Positions 5,963 to 64,000 of a stretch of 64,000 bases of DNA are shown piece by piece (position 1 is the stretch's first letter; each line of letters opens with the position of its first letter). The notes beneath the pieces are model-generated. The model worked only from the letters and a program-made list of their open reading frames with translations, searched no databases and was not told the DNA's origin. This stretch comes from an uncultured Elusimicrobia bacterium (lineage in GTDB: Bacteria; Elusimicrobiota; Elusimicrobia; UBA1565; UBA9628), in assembly GCA_903881545.1 (NCBI GenBank), contig CAIRTQ010000036.1, positions 3,772-67,771 on the forward strand, read 5' to 3'. The position numbers and the translations under genes were made by a program.

Positions 5963-7928
5963 GACGCCCGTTGAAAGAGGCGCTCTTGCCGCCCTCGCGA
6001 AGCGCCGAAATCTTGCGGCCTTGGGCGGCTTGGCACTGCTTTATGCCGTCATAAATTATATTTGGTTGCGCGGCGACGCCCCTATCCCGCTAGCCAGGGA
6101 CGCACTTTACGCCACCTACATGCTGCCCTATGTCCCATTTCTCAAAAAGTTATCCTGGTCGCTTCATGATTTGAACGCCGCGGCAGACATCGCCGCATTG
6201 TGGCGATGCGAACAACTCCATAGCCCGTATGGCCTCACATATAGTCTGCCGGCCGCGGCGGTCATGGCGCTTTCCAATAATTCTCTGCTGAAGACCGTGC
6301 TCTTCATGAACATCCCGTTCTTCATCCTCTTGCTGGCATCCGTCTATCTGCTGGGCCGGCGCATCGCCGGAAGCAATGCCGGCCTGGCTTCCGCCGTCCT
6401 GCTGGCGCTCTACCCTGCTGTCTTTGGGACCTCGCGGATGTATTGCCCGGATTTTGCGAGCATGGCGATCACCACGTTGAGCATATTGATGCTGCTCCAA
6501 TGCGAGGATTTCACCAAGACCGGATATTCCGTCCTGTACGGGGCGGCGGCGGCTTGGGGGATGCTGACCAAGACCGAGTCCGTAGCGTTCCTTGCGGGCC
6601 CCACGATTTTCATCGTTTCAAAGGCGCTGTATCCCTGGCTCCGGGAGCGGTCGCTGGCCGGCCGCTGGCGGCAGCCATGCAACATCCTGCTGGGCTTGGC
6701 GGCCTGGTACTTCCTGGCTGGCGGGCGCATGGAGCAGTTACTGGGCAAGATCGGCGGCCTGGCCGGAGAAGTCGCACCGCCCGGGATAAATTTCACAACA
6801 TACACGCTGGAACTATCCGAATGCATGTTAGGCGGCTTCTTCTCCCTGGCCTTCCTCTGGGGAGCGGCTGTTTTCTTCCGCAGAGCCGCAATCCCCAGGG
6901 ATACCAAGATCGTATGCGCTCTGTGGCTGCTCTTGCCCTGGTCCATCCTCGTGATGGCGCCCCATCGCGGGACGCACCTCTATGCTTTGATGTACCTGCC
7001 GGACATCGCACTGATGTCCGCGATAGGAATCGCGGGGCTTAGGCCGAACCTCCGGCGCGTCATGATGTCGGCCCTCCTTGCGGTCGGAGCGGTCCAATAT
7101 TACGACTTTTCCTTTACCGGAGGCCCGCATCTGGACCGGTTGCATTGGGATGGGCGCCCCGGGTGGGGCCCAAGTCTGCGCTATTTCCGAACGCACAATG
7201 ACCTCTGCCGCAGAATGGGCTCCGCCACCCAAGCATTCAGGGTTCTCGAAGCCATCGGGTCTTCGGTCGAAAAGAGAATGGCGGAATATCCAGGCCGGAT
7301 GGTATTGGTATGGGCCGCAAACCGTGAGCTTAACAACAAATATGGTCAGCCCCGTTGGAGCGTGCTCGAGGGATTCCGGCAGGCGCCGGGGTTCCTGGCG
7401 TCCCGAGATACTCCGCTCATTTTTGAGCCGCAGATCGTCTACCTCATGTCCGTGGTGGACTTCATGCTGGTCAGCGGGCGCAGCACGGATCCGGACCTCG
7501 CCAGCGCTTCGTGGTTCGATAAGAACCTGCTCCCGGAGAACATGGCGGATACCCCCCCTGAAGCGCGGGAATTCATTAAAAAATATGTCGCCGAGCTAGG
7601 CGGGTTCGATAAGCTGGGACCGCGCCACGTGGCTTCAATGAAACAGTACCACTGCGCCAGACTTTATGAGAACGACGATGATTATGTCGCTTTCTGTCAA
7701 AGACCCCCGGGACCTGTAGGCCGAGAGGAGCGGTCCCTTCTAAGCCGATTACCTATCGAACATTACATCGCGGAGTCCTATTTGGATCTGGCGCATCGTT
7801 ACGAAGAGCAATCCCGATGGATCAAAGCCGAGCAGGCTTATTTGCAAGCCCTGCGCATCGACCCCAAAGCGGTTTATATCCATTCTGATCTAGCCCGCCT
7901 CAACGAAAGGCGGGGCCATAGAGGATAG
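5958..7928 (+). CDS. Polytopic membrane glycosyltransferase (PMT/ArnT-like, GT39/GT83-type) with C-terminal TPR region; 5' end ambiguous or frameshifted
   Basis: About 10 TM helices, then a soluble domain ending in a TPR-like stretch (AEQAYLQALRIDP). Main frame has no ATG after the upstream stop. ATG at 5958 (ATGA overlap with the GT4 stop) is in the +1 frame for only about 12 codons. Confidence 0.6.
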   Translation, partial: HETPVERGALAALAKRRNLAALGGLALLYAVINYIWLRGDAPIPLARDALYATYMLPYVPFLKKLSWSLHDLNAAADIAALWRCEQLHSPYGLTYSLPAAAVMALSNNSLLKTVLFMNIPFFILLLASVYLLGRRIAGSNAGLASAVLLALYPAVFGTSRMYCPDFASMAITTLSILMLLQCEDFTKTGYSVLYGAAAAWGMLTKTESVAFLAGPTIFIVSKALYPWLRERSLAGRWRQPCNILLGLAAWYFLAGGRMEQLLGKIGGLAGEVAPPGINFTTYTLELSECMLGGFFSLAFLWGAAVFFRRAAIPRDTKIVCALWLLLPWSILVMAPHRGTHLYALMYLPDIALMSAIGIAGLRPNLRRVMMSALLAVGAVQYYDFSFTGGPHLDRLHWDGRPGWGPSLRYFRTHNDLCRRMGSATQAFRVLEAIGSSVEKRMAEYPGRMVLVWAANRELNNKYGQPRWSVLEGFRQAPGFLASRDTPLIFEPQIVYLMSVVDFMLVSGRSTDPDLASASWFDKNLLPENMADTPPEAREFIKKYVAELGGFDKLGPRHVASMKQYHCARLYENDDDYVAFCQRPPGPVGREERSLLSRLPIEHYIAESYLDLAHRYEEQSRWIKAEQAYLQALRIDPKAVYIHSDLARLNERRGHRG

Positions 7929-47204: not shown

Positions 47205-48143
47205 CTACAGACCGGCCATCTTCCTGAGCTCGCCGTAGGTAATGAGGAGCTTGTTGATGTCGCACTTCCCAACGGTCGAAAAGCTGTGCGGCTGCATTCC
47301 GTAGACTCCGTTCGTGAACTGCCAGATGGCCGTCGCCTTCGGGGGCGTGCTGATGTAGGAGGCGACCCAGCGGGGGCAATTAGCCAGCAGACCGGTGGTG
47401 CGGACATTATGGAGGCTCGTATAGAGAAACGGATAGCGGCCGGTCTTCTTATAAACGCGAGTGACAAACGCCTCCGCCTCGGCGGTGCTCATCGATCGGC
47501 CGTCGGGGTTGTTCTCCAAGTCGAGCACAAAAATGCGGCCGGGATTGGTGTCCGTGGTGACGGTACTCTTGACGCCGTTGACTATCTCGGTGGTCGTGGT
47601 CACCACGCTGGGAGGGAACATGACCAGGGCCGTATCGGCCTGGGTCGTGCCGCTTATCCCTCCGATTCCGAAGACATAGCCGATGATGATCATCTTCCGC
47701 GAGAGAGCCTGCTGGTAATTCTGGACAAAATTGGCGAGCATTTGCGCATTAATCTTCGAGCTCTGGACCCCGGACTGCCAGACCTTGATGCCCACGATGC
47801 CGTGAGAGGCGCTTTCGAACGTGTCCCAATTACTCACGCTCCTGAACATGTTGAGGTCCGGAAACATGAGGCCGGTCGCGCTGAGAGCCGCGCGCACGGG
47901 AATCGGAGTCGTCGCATCTGCTGTCCCGCTTGGAATACAAGAAACGACTTGACCATTGCAATAACTCGCCTTTATCGTATTTGATGGGCACACGCCCTTA
48001 ACCGGGGCCACCGCGTCAGCAATCGAAATGTAGCTTCCGTTTCCGTTCGGACAAGAAACCGTCGCCGCTACCGCGCGAGACAGCGCGCAGACGACTAGAA
48101 TCGCTATCAAAACGAAGACATTCGGCTTGCTTGCTTTTTCCAT
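47205..48143 (-). CDS. Secreted protein with GH25-lysozyme-like C-terminal region and Cys-rich N-terminal region
   Basis: Signal peptide. C-terminus IWQFTNGVYGMQ...KCDINKLL resembles the GH25 W-Q-Y-T..G.V.G..D.N motif. Lower GC. Confidence 0.4.
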   Translation of the reverse strand: MEKASKPNVFVLIAILVVCALSRAVAATVSCPNGNGSYISIADAVAPVKGVCPSNTIKASYCNGQVVSCIPSGTADATTPIPVRAALSATGLMFPDLNMFRSVSNWDTFESASHGIVGIKVWQSGVQSSKINAQMLANFVQNYQQALSRKMIIIGYVFGIGGISGTTQADTALVMFPPSVVTTTTEIVNGVKSTVTTDTNPGRIFVLDLENNPDGRSMSTAEAEAFVTRVYKKTGRYPFLYTSLHNVRTTGLLANCPRWVASYISTPPKATAIWQFTNGVYGMQPHSFSTVGKCDINKLLITYGELRKMAGL

Positions 48144-48265
48144 GGAGCCCCTCGCGAACTCAACTGCCGCTCATTGATTACGAGAGGCATTGTAGGATAG
48201 CGGCCTACATCTGTCAATGCTTTGCACTGATCCCCAATCCTCAAACAAGGAGGATCAATAATCTT

Positions 48266-48517
48266 TTAATAAACCCTGACCAAACCCATGATCGCTAAAA
48301 TTCCGAGGAAGGAGAAGCCGACGACGATGGTCCAGGGCAGGATGAGCGCCACGATGCCTTCGAGCCGAAGATCCCAGGGCAATTTATCCTTGGAGCGAAC
48401 TTTATCGACATCCTTGTCATAGGACACATATCCGATGTCATCCGTCGTCCAAATGTTGTCGGTCTCGGATTCCTGATCCGACTTCATGCTGGTATTCCTA
48501 CTCATATAATTCGGCAT
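48266..48517 (-). CDS. Small membrane protein (83 aa) whose start and 5' region lie inside the conserved 83-bp element
   Basis: MPNYMSRNTSMK..., acidic middle, one C-terminal TM. The first 12 codons are conserved at DNA level with ORF 62000-62221. Confidence 0.4.
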   Translation of the reverse strand: MPNYMSRNTSMKSDQESETDNIWTTDDIGYVSYDKDVDKVRSKDKLPWDLRLEGIVALILPWTIVVGFSFLGILAIMGLVRVY

Positions 48518-48569
48518 GTCTGCCGGTGCCTATATCTTACGACCTTTAGGTCAAGGCAAGGTCAAGAAC
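48487..48569. repeat. Conserved 83-bp element, copy A (84 % identical to 62192-62273)
   Basis: Direct alignment: 70 of 83 nt identical, last 28 nt perfect (acctttaggtcaaggcaaggtcaagaac). Confidence 0.85.
48549..48566. promoter_or_regulatory. Pho-box-like direct repeat CTTGACC-TTGC-CTTGACC (minus-strand reading), candidate OmpR/PhoB-type response-regulator site
   Basis: 7-nt repeat plus 4-nt spacer gives 11-bp periodicity. Immediately upstream of the minus-strand small ORF and 35 bp upstream of the response-regulator ATG on the plus strand. Confidence 0.45.
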
Positions 48570-48600
48570 GGCTCCCCCGTGCGCTTTGGCTATCAAAAAA

Positions 48601-49328
48601 TGCAATCATATGGTTTCGTCAAAGGCACCGTGTCCCTGCAACGAATCCTCGTCGTCGAAGACTACCCGGACATGCAGAAATTCTACGCCGACATGCTGCG
48701 CCAGCTTTCCCGCAAGACTCCGCTGGAATTCTTCATAGCCGGGACCGTGCCCAAGGCCCGCGAGATACTCGGCCGCCATGCCGTGGACTTCATCATCCTC
48801 GACTGGATGATGCCCGGCGTCTCGGGCCTTGATTTCATGAAGGAACTGCGCTCCCAGCCCGAGCACAAAGACGTCCTGGTCATCATGGTCACGGCCAGAA
48901 GCACGGCCCAGGACTGCGCCGAGGCCCTCTACGCCGGGGCCGACGATTTTCTCTCCAAGCCGTTCAATGGGGACGTGCTCCTGGCGCGGTTGCACAGCCT
49001 GGCGCGACGCAAGGGACGGCTCTGGGAGGCCGGGGCCCCCATCGTGCACGGCGACATCCGCCTCGACCCGGCCCGCTGCGAGGCGACAGTCTCGGGCAAA
49101 CCGGTGCGGCTGCCCCCCAAGGAGCTGCACCTGCTGGAACTTTTTCTTAGGCGTCCCAATGTCCTGCATTCGGCCGCCTCCCTCTGGGAGAGCGGCTGGG
49201 GCATGGACACCGAGAACTGGCATCACATCCTGATCGCGACCATCTCGCACCTGAAGAAGCTACTGGGCCCGAAGCACGGGGCGCACATCAAGACCCGCCG
49301 GGGCCTGGGCTACATCTTCGAACCCTAA
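48601..49328 (+). CDS. OmpR/PhoB-family response regulator (receiver plus winged-helix), no adjacent histidine kinase
   Basis: RILVVEDYPD, phospho-acceptor D in FIILDWMMPG, and a C-terminal trans_reg_C domain (..RRGLGYIFEP). Start taken at ATG 48601. Confidence 0.8.
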
Positions 49329-49427
49329 GCGCAGTTGGCGTTCCCCCGCCCACGCCGCCCACCACCGCGCGTTTTTTTGGTATCCTCTGGCCGTCGCGTT
49401 GGAAAGCCTTCTCCAGGAGAGCCGAAC

Positions 49428-51365
49428 ATGCCCGAGTTCAAGCCCTACATCGACGATGCCGCCGACATCGCGGAGTTCTCCCTCAAGGCGGTCGTCCTAG
49501 GCGCCCTCTTCGGCGTCCTCTTCGGCGCCTCGACCGTCTACCTGGCCCTGCGCGCCGGCCTGACCGTCTCCGCCTCCATCCCCATCGCGGTCCTGGCCAT
49601 CGCCGTGTTCAAAAAGCTCGGCAAGTCCACCATCCTGGAGAACAACATCGTGCAGACCATCGGCTCCGCCGGCGAGTCCATCGCCGCGGGCGTGGTCTTC
49701 ACCGTGCCCGCGCTCATGTTCCTCAGCAATGGCGCGCAGTACTTCCGCTACTTCCAGATATTCACCCTTTCCCTGGTAGGCGGCATCCTAGGCATCCTTT
49801 TTATGATTCCCTTGCGCCGCGCCCTCATCGTCAAGGAGCACGGCTCTTTGCCTTACCCCGAAGGCACCGCCTGCGCGGAGGTCCTGGTGGCTGGCGAGAA
49901 GGGCGGCAACCTCGCCAAGATGGTCTTCTCCGGGGTGTGGACCGCCATCGCCTACAAGCTGCTGATGAGCGTGTTTGGCCTCTGGAAGGACACGCCCGAA
50001 TTCGTCACCTCCCGCGCCTCCCAATTGCCCAACCTCACCGTCAACTCCGAGATCACGCCCGAGTACCTGGGCGTGGGCTACATCATCGGGCCCCTGGGCT
50101 CGGCCCAGATCGTGGCCGGCTCGGTCCTCTCCTGGATGGTGCTCATCCCGCTCATCACCCTCTTCGGCGACAAGATCCCCTCGGCCATGCTGCCGGGCTG
50201 GCATGACAAGCTCATCAGCCAGATGGACCCGCTGGATATCTTCAAGGGCTATGTCCGCTACATCGGGGCCGGCGCGGTCGCGGCCGGCGGCCTCTTCACT
50301 TTGGTGCGCACCATCCCCACCATCATCTCGTCATTCCAGGGCAGCCTCAAGGACTTGAAAAACGCCGGCCAGGGCGGTAGCCGCAAGCGCACGGAACGCG
50401 ACATCCCCATGAACTATGTCCTGTGGGGCTCGCTGGCCCTGGCCTTGGTCATGGCGGTCCTGCCCCAGTTCCCGGGCAAGTTCCCCGCGACCTTGGTCAT
50501 GTCCCTCATGATCCTGGTCTTCGGATTCTTCTTCGTGACCGTGTCCAGCCGCATCGTGGGCATCATCGGCTCATCCTCCAACCCCATCTCGGGCATGACC
50601 ATCGGAACCATCATGGCCACCTGCCTCATCTTCGTGGCCATGGGCTGGACCGGAGACGCCTACCAGGCCATCGCCCTGTTCGTGGGCGCGGTGGTATGCA
50701 TCGCCTCAGCCAACGCCGGGGCCACCTCCCAGGACCTCAAGACCGGCTATATCGTGGGCGCCACGCCGTGGAAGCAGCAGCTGGGCCTCATCATCGGGGT
50801 CCTGGCCTCGGTCTCAGTCGTGGGCCTGACCTTGTTCCTCCTGCACAACTCGCCCTACGGCCCCATCGGCTCGGAGAAGCTCTCCGCGCCCCAGGCGACC
50901 TTGATGGCCACCCTCATCAAGGGCCTCCTGGCACGAGAGCTGCCCTGGGGCCTGGTCTTCATCGGCATCCTGATCTCGGTCTTCGTGGAGCTGCTGGGCG
51001 TGCGCTCCCTGCCGGTGGCGGTCGGTGTGTATCTGCCGCTGGCGACGACCATGCCGATATTCGTGGGTGGGATGATCAATCCCGCCGTGGCCTGGTGGAC
51101 GAAGCGCAAGGCCGAAGCCGAGGGCGAGATCAGCTCGGGCATGCTCTATTCCACCGGCCTGGTCGCGGGCGGGTCCTTGGCTGGCGTCGGCATCGCGGTG
51201 CTGGCCGGCGTGCACGAGGGCTACTTCGCCAGATTGCTCAATTTTGGACTGAAGATCAACGCCGTAGGATCCTTCGGCGCTTACGCCGACTTGGTATCGG
51301 TAGCGGCTTTCGCGGCGCTGGCATTCATGCTGTTCCATGCCGCGTGCCGCAAGGTCCCGCGTTGA
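49428..51365 (+). CDS. OPT-family oligopeptide transporter
   Basis: About 645 aa and about 16 TM, starting MPEFKPYIDD. Confidence 0.75.
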   Translation: MPEFKPYIDDAADIAEFSLKAVVLGALFGVLFGASTVYLALRAGLTVSASIPIAVLAIAVFKKLGKSTILENNIVQTIGSAGESIAAGVVFTVPALMFLSNGAQYFRYFQIFTLSLVGGILGILFMIPLRRALIVKEHGSLPYPEGTACAEVLVAGEKGGNLAKMVFSGVWTAIAYKLLMSVFGLWKDTPEFVTSRASQLPNLTVNSEITPEYLGVGYIIGPLGSAQIVAGSVLSWMVLIPLITLFGDKIPSAMLPGWHDKLISQMDPLDIFKGYVRYIGAGAVAAGGLFTLVRTIPTIISSFQGSLKDLKNAGQGGSRKRTERDIPMNYVLWGSLALALVMAVLPQFPGKFPATLVMSLMILVFGFFFVTVSSRIVGIIGSSSNPISGMTIGTIMATCLIFVAMGWTGDAYQAIALFVGAVVCIASANAGATSQDLKTGYIVGATPWKQQLGLIIGVLASVSVVGLTLFLLHNSPYGPIGSEKLSAPQATLMATLIKGLLARELPWGLVFIGILISVFVELLGVRSLPVAVGVYLPLATTMPIFVGGMINPAVAWWTKRKAEAEGEISSGMLYSTGLVAGGSLAGVGIAVLAGVHEGYFARLLNFGLKINAVGSFGAYADLVSVAAFAALAFMLFHAACRKVPR

Positions 51366-59604: not shown

Positions 59605-60684
59605 ATGGAAATCGGCATCGTCGGCCTGCCCAACGTTGGAAAATCCACGGTCTTCAACGCCCTGACCGCGGGCCATGCCCCGGCCTCCAACTATCCTTTC
59701 ACCACGGTCGAGCCCAACATCGGCATCGTGGCTGTCCCAGACCCCAGGCTCGACCGACTGCACCAACTCTTCAGCTCCAAGACCAAGGCGCCGGCCGTGG
59801 TGCGCTTCGTGGACATCGCGGGCCTAGTCAAAGGCGCGGCCGCGGGCGAAGGCCTGGGCAACAAATTCCTCGCCCACATCCGCGAGGTGGACGCCATCCT
59901 CATGCTGGTGAGGCTCTTCCAAGACCCGGACGTGGCGCATACCATGGGCGGGGTGGACCCCCGGCGCGACATCGAGGTAATCGAAACCGAGCTCATCCTG
60001 GCGGACCTGGCTGGCGCGGAGAAGCAGATCGAGAAGCTCACCACCAAGGCCCGCACCGGGGACAAGGACGCGCGCAGCTCCCTGGCACTCCTGGAACAGG
60101 TACGGGCGGGGTTGGCCGCCGGCAAGCCGGTGCGCGCGCTAGGCTTGCCGCCCGCCGAACTCAAGCCCCATTGCTTTCTCACCGCCAAGCCCGTGCTCTT
60201 CGCCGCCAACACGGATGAAAAACCCGACCCTGCGCGGTTGGCCGAGATAGAGGCCTTGGCCCAAGAGCGCAAAGCCGGCTGCGTGGCTCTCTGCGGCAAG
60301 CTCGAAGCCGAGATGATTCAGTTGGCCGCCGGAGACCGACAGGCCTTCATGTCCGAATTGGGGCTCACGGCCACCGGACTGGAGCGCGTCATCGTAGCGG
60401 CCTACCAGCTTCTCGGCCAGATCAGCTTCTTCACCATCGGAGACTATGAGGTCCGGGCCTGGGCCCTGACCGCGGGCTGGAAGGCGCCCCAGGCAGCCGG
60501 CATCATCCACAGCGACTTCGAGAAGGGCTTCATACGGGCGGAGGTCTACCGGTTCGCGGACCTGGACCGGCACGAAAAAGAATCAGTCCTGCGCGAAAAG
60601 GGCCTGATCCGCTCCGAGGGCAAGGACTATGTGGTCAAGGATGGCGATGTCTGCTTCTTCAAATTCTCCCCGCCTGAAAAGTGA
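59605..60684 (+). CDS. ychF: Ribosome-binding ATPase YchF (Obg-like)
   Basis: MEIGIVGLPNVGKSTVFNALT. C-terminal TGS domain. Confidence 0.95.
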   Translation: MEIGIVGLPNVGKSTVFNALTAGHAPASNYPFTTVEPNIGIVAVPDPRLDRLHQLFSSKTKAPAVVRFVDIAGLVKGAAAGEGLGNKFLAHIREVDAILMLVRLFQDPDVAHTMGGVDPRRDIEVIETELILADLAGAEKQIEKLTTKARTGDKDARSSLALLEQVRAGLAAGKPVRALGLPPAELKPHCFLTAKPVLFAANTDEKPDPARLAEIEALAQERKAGCVALCGKLEAEMIQLAAGDRQAFMSELGLTATGLERVIVAAYQLLGQISFFTIGDYEVRAWALTAGWKAPQAAGIIHSDFEKGFIRAEVYRFADLDRHEKESVLREKGLIRSEGKDYVVKDGDVCFFKFSPPEK

Positions 60685-61861
60685 GCCGGCAGTGAACCAC
60701 GCGGCGCGCTGTATCCACTTCGGCGTCTGCGGCGGCTGTTCCATGCAGGACCGGCCTTACGAGGGGCAACTTCAGCTCAAGACCGAGAGGGTCCAGGCTT
60801 GCCTTTCCGTTATTAAGGCTATCCCCGCGCCTCGGACCCAAGCCTCGCCCGACATCTGGTTTTACCGCAACAAGATGGAGTTCAGCTTCGGCGATGTGTA
60901 CCCGCCGCAGGCCGCGGGCCCGACCGTGAAACTCGGCTTGAAGCCTAAAGGCCGCTGGTACGAGATATTGGACCTGCAAGAGTGCTTCCTCTTATCCCAG
61001 GAGACAGCCGGCCTCTTGGCCGGCGTCCGGGCTTGGGCTGAAAAGGAAAAGCTGACTCCGTACAACGGCCACAAGAAGACGGGATTTTTACGGCACCTGG
61101 TCCTCCGGGAAGCCAAGGGCTCGGGAGAGCGCATGGTCGTCCTGGTCACGTCGCCCGGCGAGTTGCCCGAGGCGTCGTTCCTGGAAGCGGTCCGGGCCGC
61201 TTACCCGGCGACCACCGTGCTCTGGGGCGTCAACGAGAAGGCCGCCGATGTGGCCGTGAGCGACCGCCTGCGCGTCCTGGCCGGGCCCGGGCACATCACG
61301 GAAGAACTGCGCTTCGGCGAACGCGCCCTGCGCTTGCGCATCTCCCCGCATTCTTTCTTTCAGACCAATACCCACGCGGCCAACCACCTTTACTCTCTCC
61401 TGCGCGATTGGGTCCGGGCGGAAGGCGCGAACACCGTGCTGGACCTTTACTGCGGCGGCGGCGGCATCACGCTCTCGGTGGCGGACCTCTGCCGCAAGCC
61501 GGTCGGCGTGGAGTCGAACCCGGCGGCGGTGGCCGATGCCCGGGCCAACGCGGCGCTCAACGGGTCGGACCACGCGGAGTTCTACTCCGGCGCGGTGGAG
61601 ATATTGCTGCCCGCGCTTTTGGCCCTGGAGCCGCAGGTCGTGATCTGCGACCCGCCCCGGGCCGGCATGCACGCGGCCGCGGCCGCCGCCCTGGCCGCGG
61701 GTGGGCCGCGCACGGTCATCTATGTCTCCTGCAACCCGAAGTCCTTGGCCCGGGATCTGGAAATCCTGGCGGCCGGCTACGGCGTGGAACGGCTGGAAAT
61801 CTGCGACCTGTTCCCGCACACGGAGCACGTAGAGACCGCGGTCCTGCTCCGGCGCAAATAA
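60629..61861 (+). CDS. 23S rRNA (uracil-C5)-methyltransferase RlmD/TrmA family, lacking the TRAM domain (start uncertain)
   Basis: [4Fe-4S] cysteines CIHFGVCGGC, SAM-fold LDLYCGGGG, and catalytic ICDPPRAG. The first ATG overlaps ychF by 56 nt; an in-frame GTG near 60699 is an alternative. Confidence 0.8.
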   Translation: MWSRMAMSASSNSPRLKSEPAVNHAARCIHFGVCGGCSMQDRPYEGQLQLKTERVQACLSVIKAIPAPRTQASPDIWFYRNKMEFSFGDVYPPQAAGPTVKLGLKPKGRWYEILDLQECFLLSQETAGLLAGVRAWAEKEKLTPYNGHKKTGFLRHLVLREAKGSGERMVVLVTSPGELPEASFLEAVRAAYPATTVLWGVNEKAADVAVSDRLRVLAGPGHITEELRFGERALRLRISPHSFFQTNTHAANHLYSLLRDWVRAEGANTVLDLYCGGGGITLSVADLCRKPVGVESNPAAVADARANAALNGSDHAEFYSGAVEILLPALLALEPQVVICDPPRAGMHAAAAAALAAGGPRTVIYVSCNPKSLARDLEILAAGYGVERLEICDLFPHTEHVETAVLLRRK

Positions 61862-61891: not shown

Positions 61892-61966
61892 GCGCTCGTA
61901 ACACAATGGATAGTGTCCAAGCCTGCGAAGCTTGGTATATAGGTTCGATTCCTATCGAGCGCACCA
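61892..61966 (+). tRNA. tRNA-Arg with anticodon GCG (CCA encoded), followed by a T-run
   Basis: Hand-folded cloverleaf. Acceptor GCGCTCG/CGAGCGC, D-arm ACAC-AATGGATA-GTGT, anticodon arm CAAGC-CTGCGAA-GCTTG, T-arm ATAGG-TTCGATT-CCTAT, discriminator A, CCA. Followed by TTTTTT. Confidence 0.75.
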
Positions 61967-61999
61967 TTTTTTGGCGGAAAGCCAGCATTTCCTGCGGCC

Positions 62000-62221
62000 T
62001 CAGGGCCGCAATTCCGGGCTAAAAACAGCGACGGCGGGGGGGCAGCGCGTCATCCGCCACGTCCCCGATTCTCCTGCAGGCAGTCCGCTGTTGTGCAAAA
62101 GAGTGCCCGCGCACGCGTGTTGGCTGGAACAGGTCCCTGTCCACGGGCCTTGTCCGCAATCTATGGTCCAAGATGTTCCTGTCACTTTCAAGCTGGTATT
62201 CTCCCTCATATAACTCGGCAT
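62000..62221 (-). CDS. Small Cys-rich ORF (73 aa) paralogous at its 5' end to ORF 48266-48517; coding status uncertain
   Basis: MPSYMRENTSLK... shares only the first ~12 codons and the upstream region with copy A. The rest is Cys/Gly/Thr-rich with no TM. Confidence 0.3.
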   Translation of the reverse strand: MPSYMRENTSLKVTGTSWTIDCGQGPWTGTCSSQHACAGTLLHNSGLPAGESGTWRMTRCPPAVAVFSPELRP

Positions 62222-62273
62222 GCCTGTCGGCGTCTACAACTTAGAACCTTTAGGTCAAGGCAAGGTCAAGAAC
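62192..62273. repeat. Conserved 83-bp element, copy B
   Basis: See copy A. Identical 28-nt core including CTTGACC-TTGC-CTTGACC at 62253-62270. Confidence 0.85.
62253..62270. promoter_or_regulatory. Second copy of the Pho-box-like direct repeat
   Basis: Perfectly identical to 48549-48566. Confidence 0.45.
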
Positions 62274-62384
62274 CCTAAATCCTCAACGAAGCCATGAATG
62301 ATGCGCGTGAGCCAAACCCAGGCCGCTTTCCTTATTAATGACTGAATTTTGGAAAAAAAACGATAATTTGATAGAGTGGGCGCT

Positions 62385-62516
62385 ATGCATCATATCCATC
62401 ATGCAAATTGGACGCATGCGATGAACCTGCATTCAGTCCCGCAAATGGTTGTGATTATTGTGGCTGTTATCGTTGTTCTCGTGCTGTACATGATGTTCGG
62501 GCCGACGTCCCGGTAG
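62385..62516 (+). CDS. Putative 43-aa His-rich single-TM peptide (MHHIHHANWTHAM...)
   Basis: ATG preceded by an AT-rich GATAAT-like -10. His-rich head plus one hydrophobic helix. Below the ORF-track size cut-off. Confidence 0.25.
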   Translation: MHHIHHANWTHAMNLHSVPQMVVIIVAVIVVLVLYMMFGPTSR

Positions 62517-62546
62517 CGCCCGAGAAAATTCCCGCGGCGGCGGGCT

Positions 62547-63161
62547 TTGAAAAGAACGATGACTCTATCCCGTCGCTCCCAGCCAGCGCCCCGACAAGCA
62601 AAATCGTTCCGGTCCATCATCACGGGATTCGGGCTATTCTTCTGTAGCCTCCTGATTTGCCTAGGCGCCATCGAGTTGGCGATGCGCGCCGGCGGCGCCT
62701 TCCTCCTCTGGCGGCAAGCCGGCCACCGTTGGAACGGCTCGGCCGCCTCCACCACCAAACCAGCCCTGCGCATCCTGTGCATAGGGGAATCCACCACTGG
62801 CCCCAAAGAAGGGAACGACTGGCCCCACCAACTCTACGAGATCCTCAGCGCCCGGCGCCCGGACCTCGGTGTCCAGGTCATCAATGAGGGTGCTGGCTGC
62901 ACGAACTCCGCCCGGATCGTCGCGGCGGTCCCGGACTGGGTCCGCCTATTCCGTCCCCACATCGTCATAGCCATGATGGGAATCAACGACGTCGAATGGT
63001 ATGGTTTTTCGGAACCCCAAAACAGCAGCCCGCCCTTCGTCAAACTGTCCCGCCTGAGACTCTGGAAATTGGCCCCCATTAATAATCCCAAGTCCAGATT
63101 GCTTCCCAGGCTATTAAGGGCTACAATTCCAAAGACCACCAACCATAGACTAAGCCAATAA
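62547..63161 (+). CDS. Membrane-anchored SGNH/GDSL-hydrolase-like protein
   Basis: N-terminal TM, ILCIGESTT (block I-like) and MMGINDVEW (GxND block III). Short protein, so fold membership is tentative. Confidence 0.4.
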   Translation: MKRTMTLSRRSQPAPRQAKSFRSIITGFGLFFCSLLICLGAIELAMRAGGAFLLWRQAGHRWNGSAASTTKPALRILCIGESTTGPKEGNDWPHQLYEILSARRPDLGVQVINEGAGCTNSARIVAAVPDWVRLFRPHIVIAMMGINDVEWYGFSEPQNSSPPFVKLSRLRLWKLAPINNPKSRLLPRLLRATIPKTTNHRLSQ

Positions 63162-63173
63162 TCAGGAGGTTCC

Positions 63174-64000
63174 ATGAGGTATTGGGTCAAGAGCGGGGAG
63201 AAGGTCATTGGTCCCTATTCCCCAGAGGACTTGAAGACATCTGCGATCCTTAGTCCCGACACTCTGGTAGCGCCTGAAGGTGCCACGAGTCCAGCCGCTT
63301 GGAGACCAGCAAATAGCTATGAAGAGCTACGGGGAATTCTTGCAAAGCCCCCCTCGCCTCCGGCGCCGTCTCTCCACGAGGCCCAGGGCATGAACCGATG
63401 CTCTCAGTGTGGTGCCCAAAACGATGCAGATGCCGATTGCTGTGACCAATGCGGCAACGCCGTGGAAAAACATATTAACACCCCTACCGGCACCAGCGAG
63501 GAAATCAGGGCGGGACAACCTCATCACCAAGGAGAAAACTTCATGGCTCTTCCTTTTGTGTCTTGGCAAGTAAATGAAAAAGCTGTCGACGGGGTCTATG
63601 TCAAAATCATTGGACAGTCCTCCGGGATCATCTCTGGGATATTGGCGAAAATGGGAATTGATTCAATCACGAGCTTCACGGTCACTGAAGACAAAGTCCA
63701 TATCGAATCAGGAACATGGAAGGGAAAAAATAAGGTTATTGTCCCATTGCGCTCGGTAACCCGGTGCTGTTGGGGTCATAAAAAGCCTTGGGAGATAACT
63801 CTTCTCGTTGGGTTGCTCTTCGCCGCGCGAATCTACTCAAGCTGTGACTCTATAACTTCGTTCTTCACAACATTATTTATGCTTCCCATCTGGGCTTTGA
63901 TTATTGTCGGTGTCCTCCTTTACTATTATGGGTCTTCGTCCCGGCGAGTGGGTGATTTTCACCTGATTTCAGATCGGATCAAGCATGCACGTGAGGACCT
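63174..64000 (+). CDS. DUF4339-like N-terminal domain plus zinc-ribbon plus C-terminal TM protein (runs off window end)
   Basis: AGGAGG RBS. MRYWVKSGEKVIGPYSPEDLKTSAILSPDTLVAPEGATSPAAW (W...GP...L...W pattern). CSQCGAQNDADADCCDQCG. Hydrophobic segments near the end. Absent from the ORF track because no stop falls inside the window. Confidence 0.5.
   Translation, partial: MRYWVKSGEKVIGPYSPEDLKTSAILSPDTLVAPEGATSPAAWRPANSYEELRGILAKPPSPPAPSLHEAQGMNRCSQCGAQNDADADCCDQCGNAVEKHINTPTGTSEEIRAGQPHHQGENFMALPFVSWQVNEKAVDGVYVKIIGQSSGIISGILAKMGIDSITSFTVTEDKVHIESGTWKGKNKVIVPLRSVTRCCWGHKKPWEITLLVGLLFAARIYSSCDSITSFFTTLFMLPIWALIIVGVLLYYYGSSSRRVGDFHLISDRIKHARED

Follow-up and report, generated by a model that had tools for sequence, protein, structure and literature searches.

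A duplicated 87-nt promoter-like element and its predicted link to an adjacent PhoB/RegX3-like response regulator in an uncultured Elusimicrobia bacterium

The 87-nt element and the gene downstream of copy A

The stretch of DNA analyzed here (64 kb, hereafter the window) comes from an uncultured Elusimicrobia bacterium and carries two copies of an 87-nt element, both on the minus strand: copy A at 48483-48569, between a gene for a small membrane protein and the divergent gene of an OmpR/PhoB-family response regulator, and copy B at 62187-62273, 220 bp beyond the tRNA-Arg(GCG) gene that follows RlmD. The copies are 85% identical, with 13 mismatches and no gaps, and are slightly longer than the repeat of 84% identity (48487-48569 and 62192-62273) reported in a first-pass annotation of this DNA. 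They form the sole long high-identity repeat family in the window (family D3), with no third copy, and both lie in pockets of 49-50% GC in a genome of 64% GC.

A perfect core of 28 nt (48542-48569 and 62246-62273; minus-strand sequence GTTCTTGACCTTGCCTTGACCTAAAGGT) is present in both copies, as first described, and includes a direct repeat with an 11-bp period. The repeat can be read as two 7-nt units (CTTGACC-TTGC-CTTGACC), which was the earlier reading, or equally well as 8-3-8 (CTTGACCT-TGC-CTTGACCT). This box, the putative operator, spans 48549-48566 on the minus strand in copy A (hexamers TTGACC at 48560-48565 and 48549-48554) and is identical in copy B (62253-62270, minus strand). With a position weight matrix (PWM) trained on four sites, the remaining sites being held out and 300 shuffles used, box A scores 24.8 bits against a shuffle maximum of 17, and box B is recovered by sequence scan and by the same matrix. 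The 18-mer CTTGACCTTGCCTTGACC has exactly two matches in the window even when up to three mismatches are allowed (0.00 expected from shuffles), while TTGACC-N5-TTGACC with two mismatches gives only chance-level additional matches there.

Along the minus strand both copies have the order TTGACC-TTGCC-TTGACC, 9 nt, a -10 hexamer (TAAGAT at 48534-48539 in copy A, TAAGTT at 62238-62243 in copy B), a leader of about 40 nt, AGGA/GGGAGA, 8 nt and a start codon; the TAAAGGT reported after the box and ahead of TAAG(A/T)T is found in both. Transcription is predicted to start near 48527 and 62231, which would place box A at about -39 to -22 and give copy A a 5' untranslated region of about 40 nt (48488-48527, minus strand) with two upstream ATGs (codons 1 and 5 of the earlier ORF reading) and an AGGA that resembles a Shine-Dalgarno sequence, 8 nt ahead of the start codon, a reading based on the substitution pattern and the database gene model. 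The distance from hexamer to -10 is 20 nt for the distal and 9 nt for the proximal unit, neither of which is the 16-18 nt spacing, and scanning the element for the sigma-70 consensus gave no promoter. The geometry is that of a Pho box rather than of a sigma-70 promoter.

Constraint among strains is concentrated on the box. Copy A is also conserved in the sister strains L001/L002 and L032/L033, the near-identical and sister-strain contigs all coming from lake metagenomes. Among window A, window B and the L001 copy A, 15 columns vary and none of them lies inside the 28-nt core (P=0.0015). The hexamers are invariant in three strains, and in L032/L033, where the linker reads TTGCT, the stretch between box and -10 AAAGAT and the -10 itself TAATAT, both are intact. 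Window A is the most derived copy, L001-A differing from window B at eight positions and from window A at nine. A plus-strand promoter proposed earlier from TATAAT/TATAAC was rejected: TATAAT occurs only in window A, while copy B, L001 and L032/L033 have TATAAC without the key final T; no -35 is present, and the His-rich open reading frame (ORF) on the plus-strand side of copy B has its own promoter-like site.

An exact 25-mer scan of a species-representative genome collection and a scan of viral contigs each returned no match. A degenerate box scan of metagenome contigs returned 10 matches, all in unrelated contexts, and missed the related JGI contig L032 because its copy reads TAAAGA. Arrays of TTGACCA/TTGAAC ending in TTGACCTAAAGG were seen on the unrelated contigs L016 (about 2275-2330), L021 and L023 (about 2520-2565), and were found only through the search pattern.

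The gene downstream of copy A (48266-48487, minus strand; P0002) encodes a protein of 73 aa from no known family, acidic in its N-terminal part and with a transmembrane helix at the C terminus. The longest frame (48266-48517) would give 83 aa, and the first-pass annotation had pointed to some 12 conserved N-terminal codons shared with the ORF of copy B. The peptide similarity (MPNYMSRNTSMK versus MPSYMRENTSLK) is real. It is not evidence of coding, because codons 1-10 of the window and L001 (94% DNA identity) differ by four non-synonymous and no synonymous changes, a pattern that agrees with the earlier suggestion of selection on DNA rather than on peptide. The first 10 codons of the reported ORF are untranslated leader and the true start is codon 11, where the database gene model (NCBI and ENA sources) also begins; an exact look-up of the 83-aa version found no record, while the 73-aa version is recorded. 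The start codon is ATG in window A and TTG in window B, L001 and L032/L033. Third-position GC is 0.68 in this frame and 0.46 and 0.35 in the other two; purifying selection acts on the transmembrane part of the 73-aa ORF (pN/pS about 0.36).

Farther along the minus strand lies a GH25 muramidase/endolysin-like gene (47205-48143; Pfam and other matches). It probably does not depend on the box, since a consensus scan gives it a near-perfect promoter-like site of its own, TTGACA-17-TACAAT at 48189-48217 (minus strand), about 300 bp from the element. The muramidase has an N-terminal signal-like segment and matches phage endolysin PHROGs. The pair formed with the small transmembrane ORF is conserved in L001, L008/L009 and L032 and brings a holin-endolysin pair to mind; the surroundings of the GH25 gene showed no further phage genes. 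In L008 (1-340) and L009, from JGI lake metagenomes, the pair is present, but upstream of about ATCAGGAATCC the box cassette is replaced by unrelated DNA with TTGGAC-18-TACAAT; the N-terminal codons of the small ORF are out of frame there, and only a 53-aa version with a GTG start is left. One promoter thus seems to have been exchanged for another at this same junction.

The adjacent response regulator and the loci of its orthologues

The regulator gene (48630-49328, plus strand) is divergent from copy A and encodes 232 aa with Pfam Response_reg and Trans_reg_C domains. Its start had been placed at 48601, which is out of frame; the start codon is the GTG at 48630, where L001 has ATG, and 64 nt separate it from the end of box A. 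Among NCBIfam models the best is PhoB (TIGR02154), with 146 bits against a cut-off of 296, and the match to NF007546 reaches 102 bits against a cut-off of 471; the best structural match in PDB is RegX3 (2oqr), with modest similarity. Orthologues in the search share 58-67% identity, and one further relative 42%; next in the list comes proteobacterial PhoB at 38-39% (37-39% with search and alignment taken together). A search of the species-representative genome collection gave only distant relatives, with at most 31% identity over the full protein, so the collection contains neither this species nor a close relative; the nearest named relatives of both the regulator and RlmD are Elusimicrobia metagenome-assembled genomes.

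All clade members aligned retain the usual acidic residues of the receiver, including the Asp of ...ILDW.... Their recognition helix, NWEHILVATISxLKK (NWHHILIATISHLKK in the window), is kept down to the relative with 43% identity (42% in the search) and differs at most positions from that of PhoB (ERTVDVHIRRLRK). A helix conserved across the clade yet unlike that of PhoB suggests a distinct DNA specificity within the OmpR/PhoB family.

Five loci with orthologues of the regulator, on Elusimicrobia metagenome contigs, were compared with the window: L026, L027 and L028 (64-66% identity to the window protein), L030 (58%) and L031 (43% by alignment, 42% by search). A sixth locus, L029, which is syntenic with the flank of copy B and has no such regulator, served as control. 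The five loci contain 11 sites, one to three in each, of the form (T/C/G)TGA(C/T)N-N5-(T/C/G)TGA(C/T)N, followed after 9 nt (eight sites) or 11 nt (three sites, orthologous to one another) by TAnnnT, or in one case by TCCTAT. Each site has a gene start 55-113 nt away and the regulator gene within about 2.1 kb, and the target genes differ by locus. Over the 15 sites listed in total, the -10 stands at 9 nt in 12 and at 11 nt in the other three, the TCCTAT site among them; the 11-bp phasing is found in 13 sites besides A and B.

The intergenic DNA of the five loci does not align with that of the window, yet the promoter of the divergent gene aligns without gaps from the distal hexamer to the -10. 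It reads TTGACC TTGTT TTGACA gaaccttcc TATGAT in L027, TTGACC TTGTT TTGACA gatctttcc TAGGAT in L028, TTGACG TTGCT CTGACC cagccttca TAGAAT in L026 and TTGATG TTATT TTGACC ttggtccat TAGTAT in L030. The site in L031, GTGACG TTGCT GTGACT ttagcctct TAAACT, lies just downstream of the regulator gene and ahead of a giant Ig-repeat gene. In L026, L027 and L028 a second site precedes a cytidylate-kinase-like gene, with an 11-nt gap and then TACTAT or TCCTAT, and a third directly follows the regulator gene, before a small ORF and a GAF-PAS hybrid kinase. What these loci keep is the box and the -10, not the leader sequence.

Held-out sites were recovered in every regulator locus: the scores of L026-5776, L027-4104, L030-2290 and L031-6791 were reached by 0 of 300 shuffles, and four others by a fraction of 0.003-0.07. 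The PWM found no site in the control locus L029 and nothing above noise in the 64-kb window beyond A and B, where the next-best score (12.3 bits) is below the shuffle mean. The targets of all sites comprise the 73-aa membrane protein, the kinase operon, the cytidylate-kinase-like gene, a 110-aa ORF, the 4344-aa Ig-repeat protein and a Big_5 protein that resembles type IX secretion sorting domains weakly and below threshold. Because the regulator gene is the sole gene common to the loci of all sites, and the targets differ, the box is most likely the operator of the adjacent regulator. The first-pass proposal of a shared promoter module dependent on the adjacent OmpR/PhoB-type regulator thus finds support in the same architecture beside orthologous regulators at five loci.

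The regulator was also described as an orphan, which is true of this genome and not of its orthologues. In L026 (7809-10404), L027 (7004-9651) and L028 (5068-7323) a small ORF comes after the orthologous gene, and then the gene of a GAF-PAS hybrid histidine kinase (about 750 aa); the window has an OPT oligopeptide transporter in that place (49335-51365). By tblastn the window has no counterpart of the hybrid kinase, the cytidylate-kinase-like gene or the 110-aa and 101-aa ORFs, and no histidine kinase is encoded in the 13.7 kb between the copies. The locus in the window has lost the kinase, and a rearrangement has left the regulator locally orphaned. Since the orthologues have a site before the kinase operon, feedback of the regulator on its own system would be expected in those strains. 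In the window, the regulator's own promoter candidate, TTGGCT-17-TATGGT at 48586-48614, scores 8/12, below the scanner threshold; given that box A ends 64 nt upstream of the regulator start, an effect on this weak candidate is conceivable, as a matter of speculation.

Two further likenesses were seen in these comparisons. L029 has at 7749-7768 (plus strand) a weak direct repeat with 11-bp phasing, ATTCTAACAGATTCTGACCT, between a single-domain receiver gene and a methyltransferase gene, with a PWM score of 9.4 that is within noise. The distal half of the element (48483-48510; plus strand GCTGGTATTCCTACTCATATAAT; GCTGGTATTC...CATATAAT) resembles GGTAT-N9-13-TATAAn stretches at about 4200-4260 in L028 and 6990-7030 in L026. 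These lie between the box and the regulator start, that is, on the opposite side of the box compared with the window, and the likeness could be a coincidence or a second shared module.

Copy B as a duplicate fused to a truncated gene

From the TTG start of its cassette, copy B opens a chimeric ORF of 63 aa (62000-62191, minus strand). The region 62045-62200 encodes the C-terminal 50 or so residues of a lipoprotein family whose full-length members have 146-161 aa (P0245, E=3e-13, and by tblastn 67% identity over 52 aa, E=1e-18; P0249, E=5e-10). The N-terminal part of these proteins, about 95 residues including the signal peptide, has no match anywhere in the window by tblastn, and the usual stop of the family after ...WRMTR is read through. 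The ORF and the 73-aa protein are not paralogues. The lipoprotein homology sets in at the very position where the likeness to copy A ends; on its other side that likeness stops 4 nt upstream of the box.

The tRNA-Arg(GCG) gene (61892-61966, plus strand; Rfam search), convergent with the predicted copy B transcript, is the conserved edge of a variable region. In L029, a relative with 74% identity, RlmD and the tRNA gene are conserved and the DNA beyond is wholly different (window 61892-64000 versus L029 7200-7900), without any element; among sister strains, the only contig with a 92%-identical RlmD ends at that gene. Because the syntenic L029 lacks the element, the duplication that gave copy B is specific to this lineage; promoter, leader and start codon were joined to a lipoprotein gene that lacks its 5' part. 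Copy B is also young: relative to the inferred ancestral form of A it has about six changes (about 7%), a distance comparable to that seen between strains. Confidence in the anatomy of the element and in this duplication history is high.

On the plus-strand side of copy B the first-pass annotation had listed a His-rich peptide, an SGNH-like gene and a DUF4339 gene. The His-rich ORF (46 aa) is there; the other two labels rest on sub-threshold matches, namely to GDSL/SGNH Pfam families and to GYF_2 (DUF4339; 20.1 bits against a cut-off of 25.8). The variable region has a GC content of 0.48-0.54 and contains the lipoprotein remnant, the His-rich 46-aa membrane peptide (MGAMHHIHHANWTH...) and the SGNH-like and GYF_2-like ORFs. 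Between the copies lie housekeeping genes (OPT transporter, VIT1, PLP enzyme, aspartate kinase, YchF, RlmD). The longest ORFs of YchF (59605-60684, plus strand) and RlmD (60629-61861, plus strand) overlap by 56 nt, and as RlmD homologues have 398-404 aa, the real RlmD start is probably a few codons downstream of 60629.

It is possible, if somewhat doubtful, that a single rearrangement left copy B as a neutral relic without function today and that the similarity between A and B has no regulatory meaning, while box A may still work. The downstream ORF is a truncated lipoprotein gene that has lost its signal peptide and its normal stop, the window has just two copies, the perfect core is marginal for the pair alone, and at about 7% divergence, like that between strains, copy B has had little time for decay. 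Against this, the B-specific changes spare the hexamers, the key -10 positions (A2 and T6), the Shine-Dalgarno region and the start codon, and the ends of the duplicated segment are also those of the functional cassette. The case that the first-pass annotation had set against itself, remnants of one duplicated gene 5' end, comes close to describing copy B, while operator function is independently supported at copy A and the orthologous loci. The small regulon it had proposed is likewise weakened where it includes copy B, a one-off duplicate fused to a truncated gene, and upheld in its operator at copy A and beside the orthologues.

Interpretation and comparison with known systems

Taken together, the 87-nt element is probably an activator-dependent promoter with its leader, on the minus strand, containing an operator of the adjacent PhoB/RegX3-like regulator and duplicated once. 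An activator-dependent type is proposed because canonical promoters are used nearby and none is found in the element, and the effect of the regulator would be activation rather than repression. OmpR/PhoB winged-helix dimers bind direct repeats. The two TTGACC hexamers, 11 bp apart at about -38 and -27, would stand in for the -35; by analogy with PhoB, the phosphorylated regulator would bind them as a head-to-tail dimer, recruit RNA polymerase, offset the missing -35 and activate transcription from the predicted starts of A and B. Copy A would hold the ancestral position beside the regulator gene, its cassette driving the 73-aa membrane protein. A single duplication of this cassette, with limits 4 nt before the box and 2 nt beyond the start codon, placed copy B in a lipoprotein gene 13.7 kb away beside tRNA-Arg, where it took the place of the 5' two-thirds of that gene ("promoter propagation"), with a product that may be a dead remnant.

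Several points weigh against this reading. The link between regulator and box is drawn from co-localization in six lineages, so that binding is predicted with good but indirect confidence. The recognition helix is unlike that of PhoB, and PhoB-like contacts cannot simply be assumed. For the A-B pair alone, a perfect run of 28 nt is only marginally unexpected (P=0.056, for 13 mismatches in 87 nt). Box control is dispensable for the small ORF, since the L008/L009 strain carries a canonical sigma-70-type promoter in its place, and copy B may be non-functional, as its ORF has no signal peptide and reads through the family stop.

A promoter for a housekeeping or alternative sigma factor, unconnected with the regulator, is an unlikely alternative. 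TTGACC is a good -35 hexamer, an ECF-like reading (TGACCTT-N16-CGTAA/TCTAA) or a long-spacer sigma-70 promoter could be fitted to the window strains, and the unrelated metagenome contig L017 has CTTGACCCCGCCTTGACCTAAAGGTCATAGTAT before a glutaminyl-tRNA synthetase gene. The ECF-type -10 is however not kept in the orthologous sites, which have CCTAT, CCTAG or CATAG in its place and keep TAnnnT; the sites cluster only around the regulator gene, with none elsewhere in the 64-kb window or in L029, and the two hexamers are conserved together at a constant 11-bp phasing, something that a single -35 would not call for. Equally improbable is the more ambitious reading of an actively propagating regulator-dependent promoter, with further copies in the genome that wire envelope and surface-protein genes into the regulon of a PhoB-derived regulator with the non-canonical NWEHILVATIS helix and a new half-site, TTGACC. 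On that reading copy B would be regulon growth by promoter copy-and-paste, caught in the act.

A structured RNA, whether a small RNA (as also suggested in the first-pass annotation), a riboswitch-like leader or a leader-peptide attenuator, is very unlikely. Beyond the box the copies share 78% identity over about 59 nt, short upstream ATGs exist, and the leader of three A-type strains can form a 5-bp hairpin, CGGCA-N4-TGCCG. This hairpin is mismatched in copy B, codons 1-10 vary as described above, and the leader is what the orthologous loci do not keep. The element has no Rfam match at gathering thresholds and only noise at permissive ones (the searches returned tRNA-Arg and one noise match), and folding of both copies on both strands gave no signal (minus-strand z-scores -1.4 and +0.25, plus-strand z-scores close to 0).

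A miniature mobile element of MITE/REP type, or an att-type repeat bounding an island at tRNA-Arg, has still less in its favor: the direct repeats are 13.7 kb apart, in low-GC pockets, and one is 220 bp from a tRNA gene, but target-site duplications and terminal inverted repeats are missing from both, the window has no further copies, the DNA between them is housekeeping genes, the repeat does not overlap the tRNA and the viral contig scan was empty. The least probable is a MerR-type promoter with a -35 TTGACC and a 20-bp spacer holding the dyad ACCTT-N11-AAGGT, for although the window spacer superficially resembles a CueR operator, the orthologous sites preserve the direct repeat (e.g., TTGACCTTGTTTTGACAGAACCTTCC) and not the dyad, the right arm in L032 is AAGAT, and no MerR gene adjoins the element in the annotated flanks.

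The activator-dependent reading has its closest counterpart in Pho boxes and PhoB-type promoters, such as those of E. coli PhoB, Synechocystis SphR and mycobacterial RegX3. The E. coli Pho box has a repeat unit of 8 bp and a linker of 3 bp, and lies 10 bp ahead of the -10 (PMC1906773). The element likewise has direct repeats of 7-8 bp with an 11-bp period in place of a -35, its box ends 9 nt before TAAGAT/TAAGTT, and a single base separates its unit CTTGACCT from the SphR box of Synechocystis, CTTAACCT (PMC1906773). The regulator is a winged-helix member of the OmpR/PhoB family with PhoB as best-scoring curated family. It is not a PhoB orthologue, having half the score of the PhoB equivalog cut-off and a different recognition helix; no pst, phoA, phoU or phoR gene lies beside any of the 15 sites, and the kinase of the orthologues is a GAF-PAS hybrid kinase. 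Given the regulator score, RegX3 as nearest structure, the recognition helix and the lack of phosphate genes at the sites, the element would work like a Pho box while not being a member of the phosphate regulon.

Operators of the OmpR family in general have the same half-site phasing, and here too the sites adjoin the regulator gene, including, in the orthologues, before the kinase operon. Half-sites co-occur with the regulator gene, within about 2.1 kb, in six of six regulator lineages, and neither L029 nor the rest of the window has any. A TTGAC(C) half-site with this spacing is not known to have been assigned to any characterized regulator, nor is a transcription-factor binding site known to have been described for the phylum of Elusimicrobia. 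The regulator clade is uncharacterized, PhoB/RegX3-like and known only from uncultured Elusimicrobia, and the comparison gives it a small predicted local regulon and an operator motif open to testing, in which TTGAC(C)-N5-TTGAC(C) stands 9 nt ahead of the -10. The mechanism is conventional, and the value of the case lies in annotation and example rather than in a new concept.

The duplication itself fits the published definition of putative mobile promoters (Matus-Garcia et al. 2012, PMC3488235). The cassette is a two-member family of 87 nt and 85% identity, conserved from the start codon to about -85, with different genes downstream (the 73-aa transmembrane ORF versus the lipoprotein remnant) and upstream (the regulator versus the His-rich ORF). 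In the survey of such elements 68% of families were two-membered (PMC3488235). The recipient of copy B is a truncated gene, and adaptive rewiring is only putative here. Among putative mobile promoters the present cassette is one that can be dissected, its predicted operator, -10, leader and start codon having been copied as one unit and fused to another gene.

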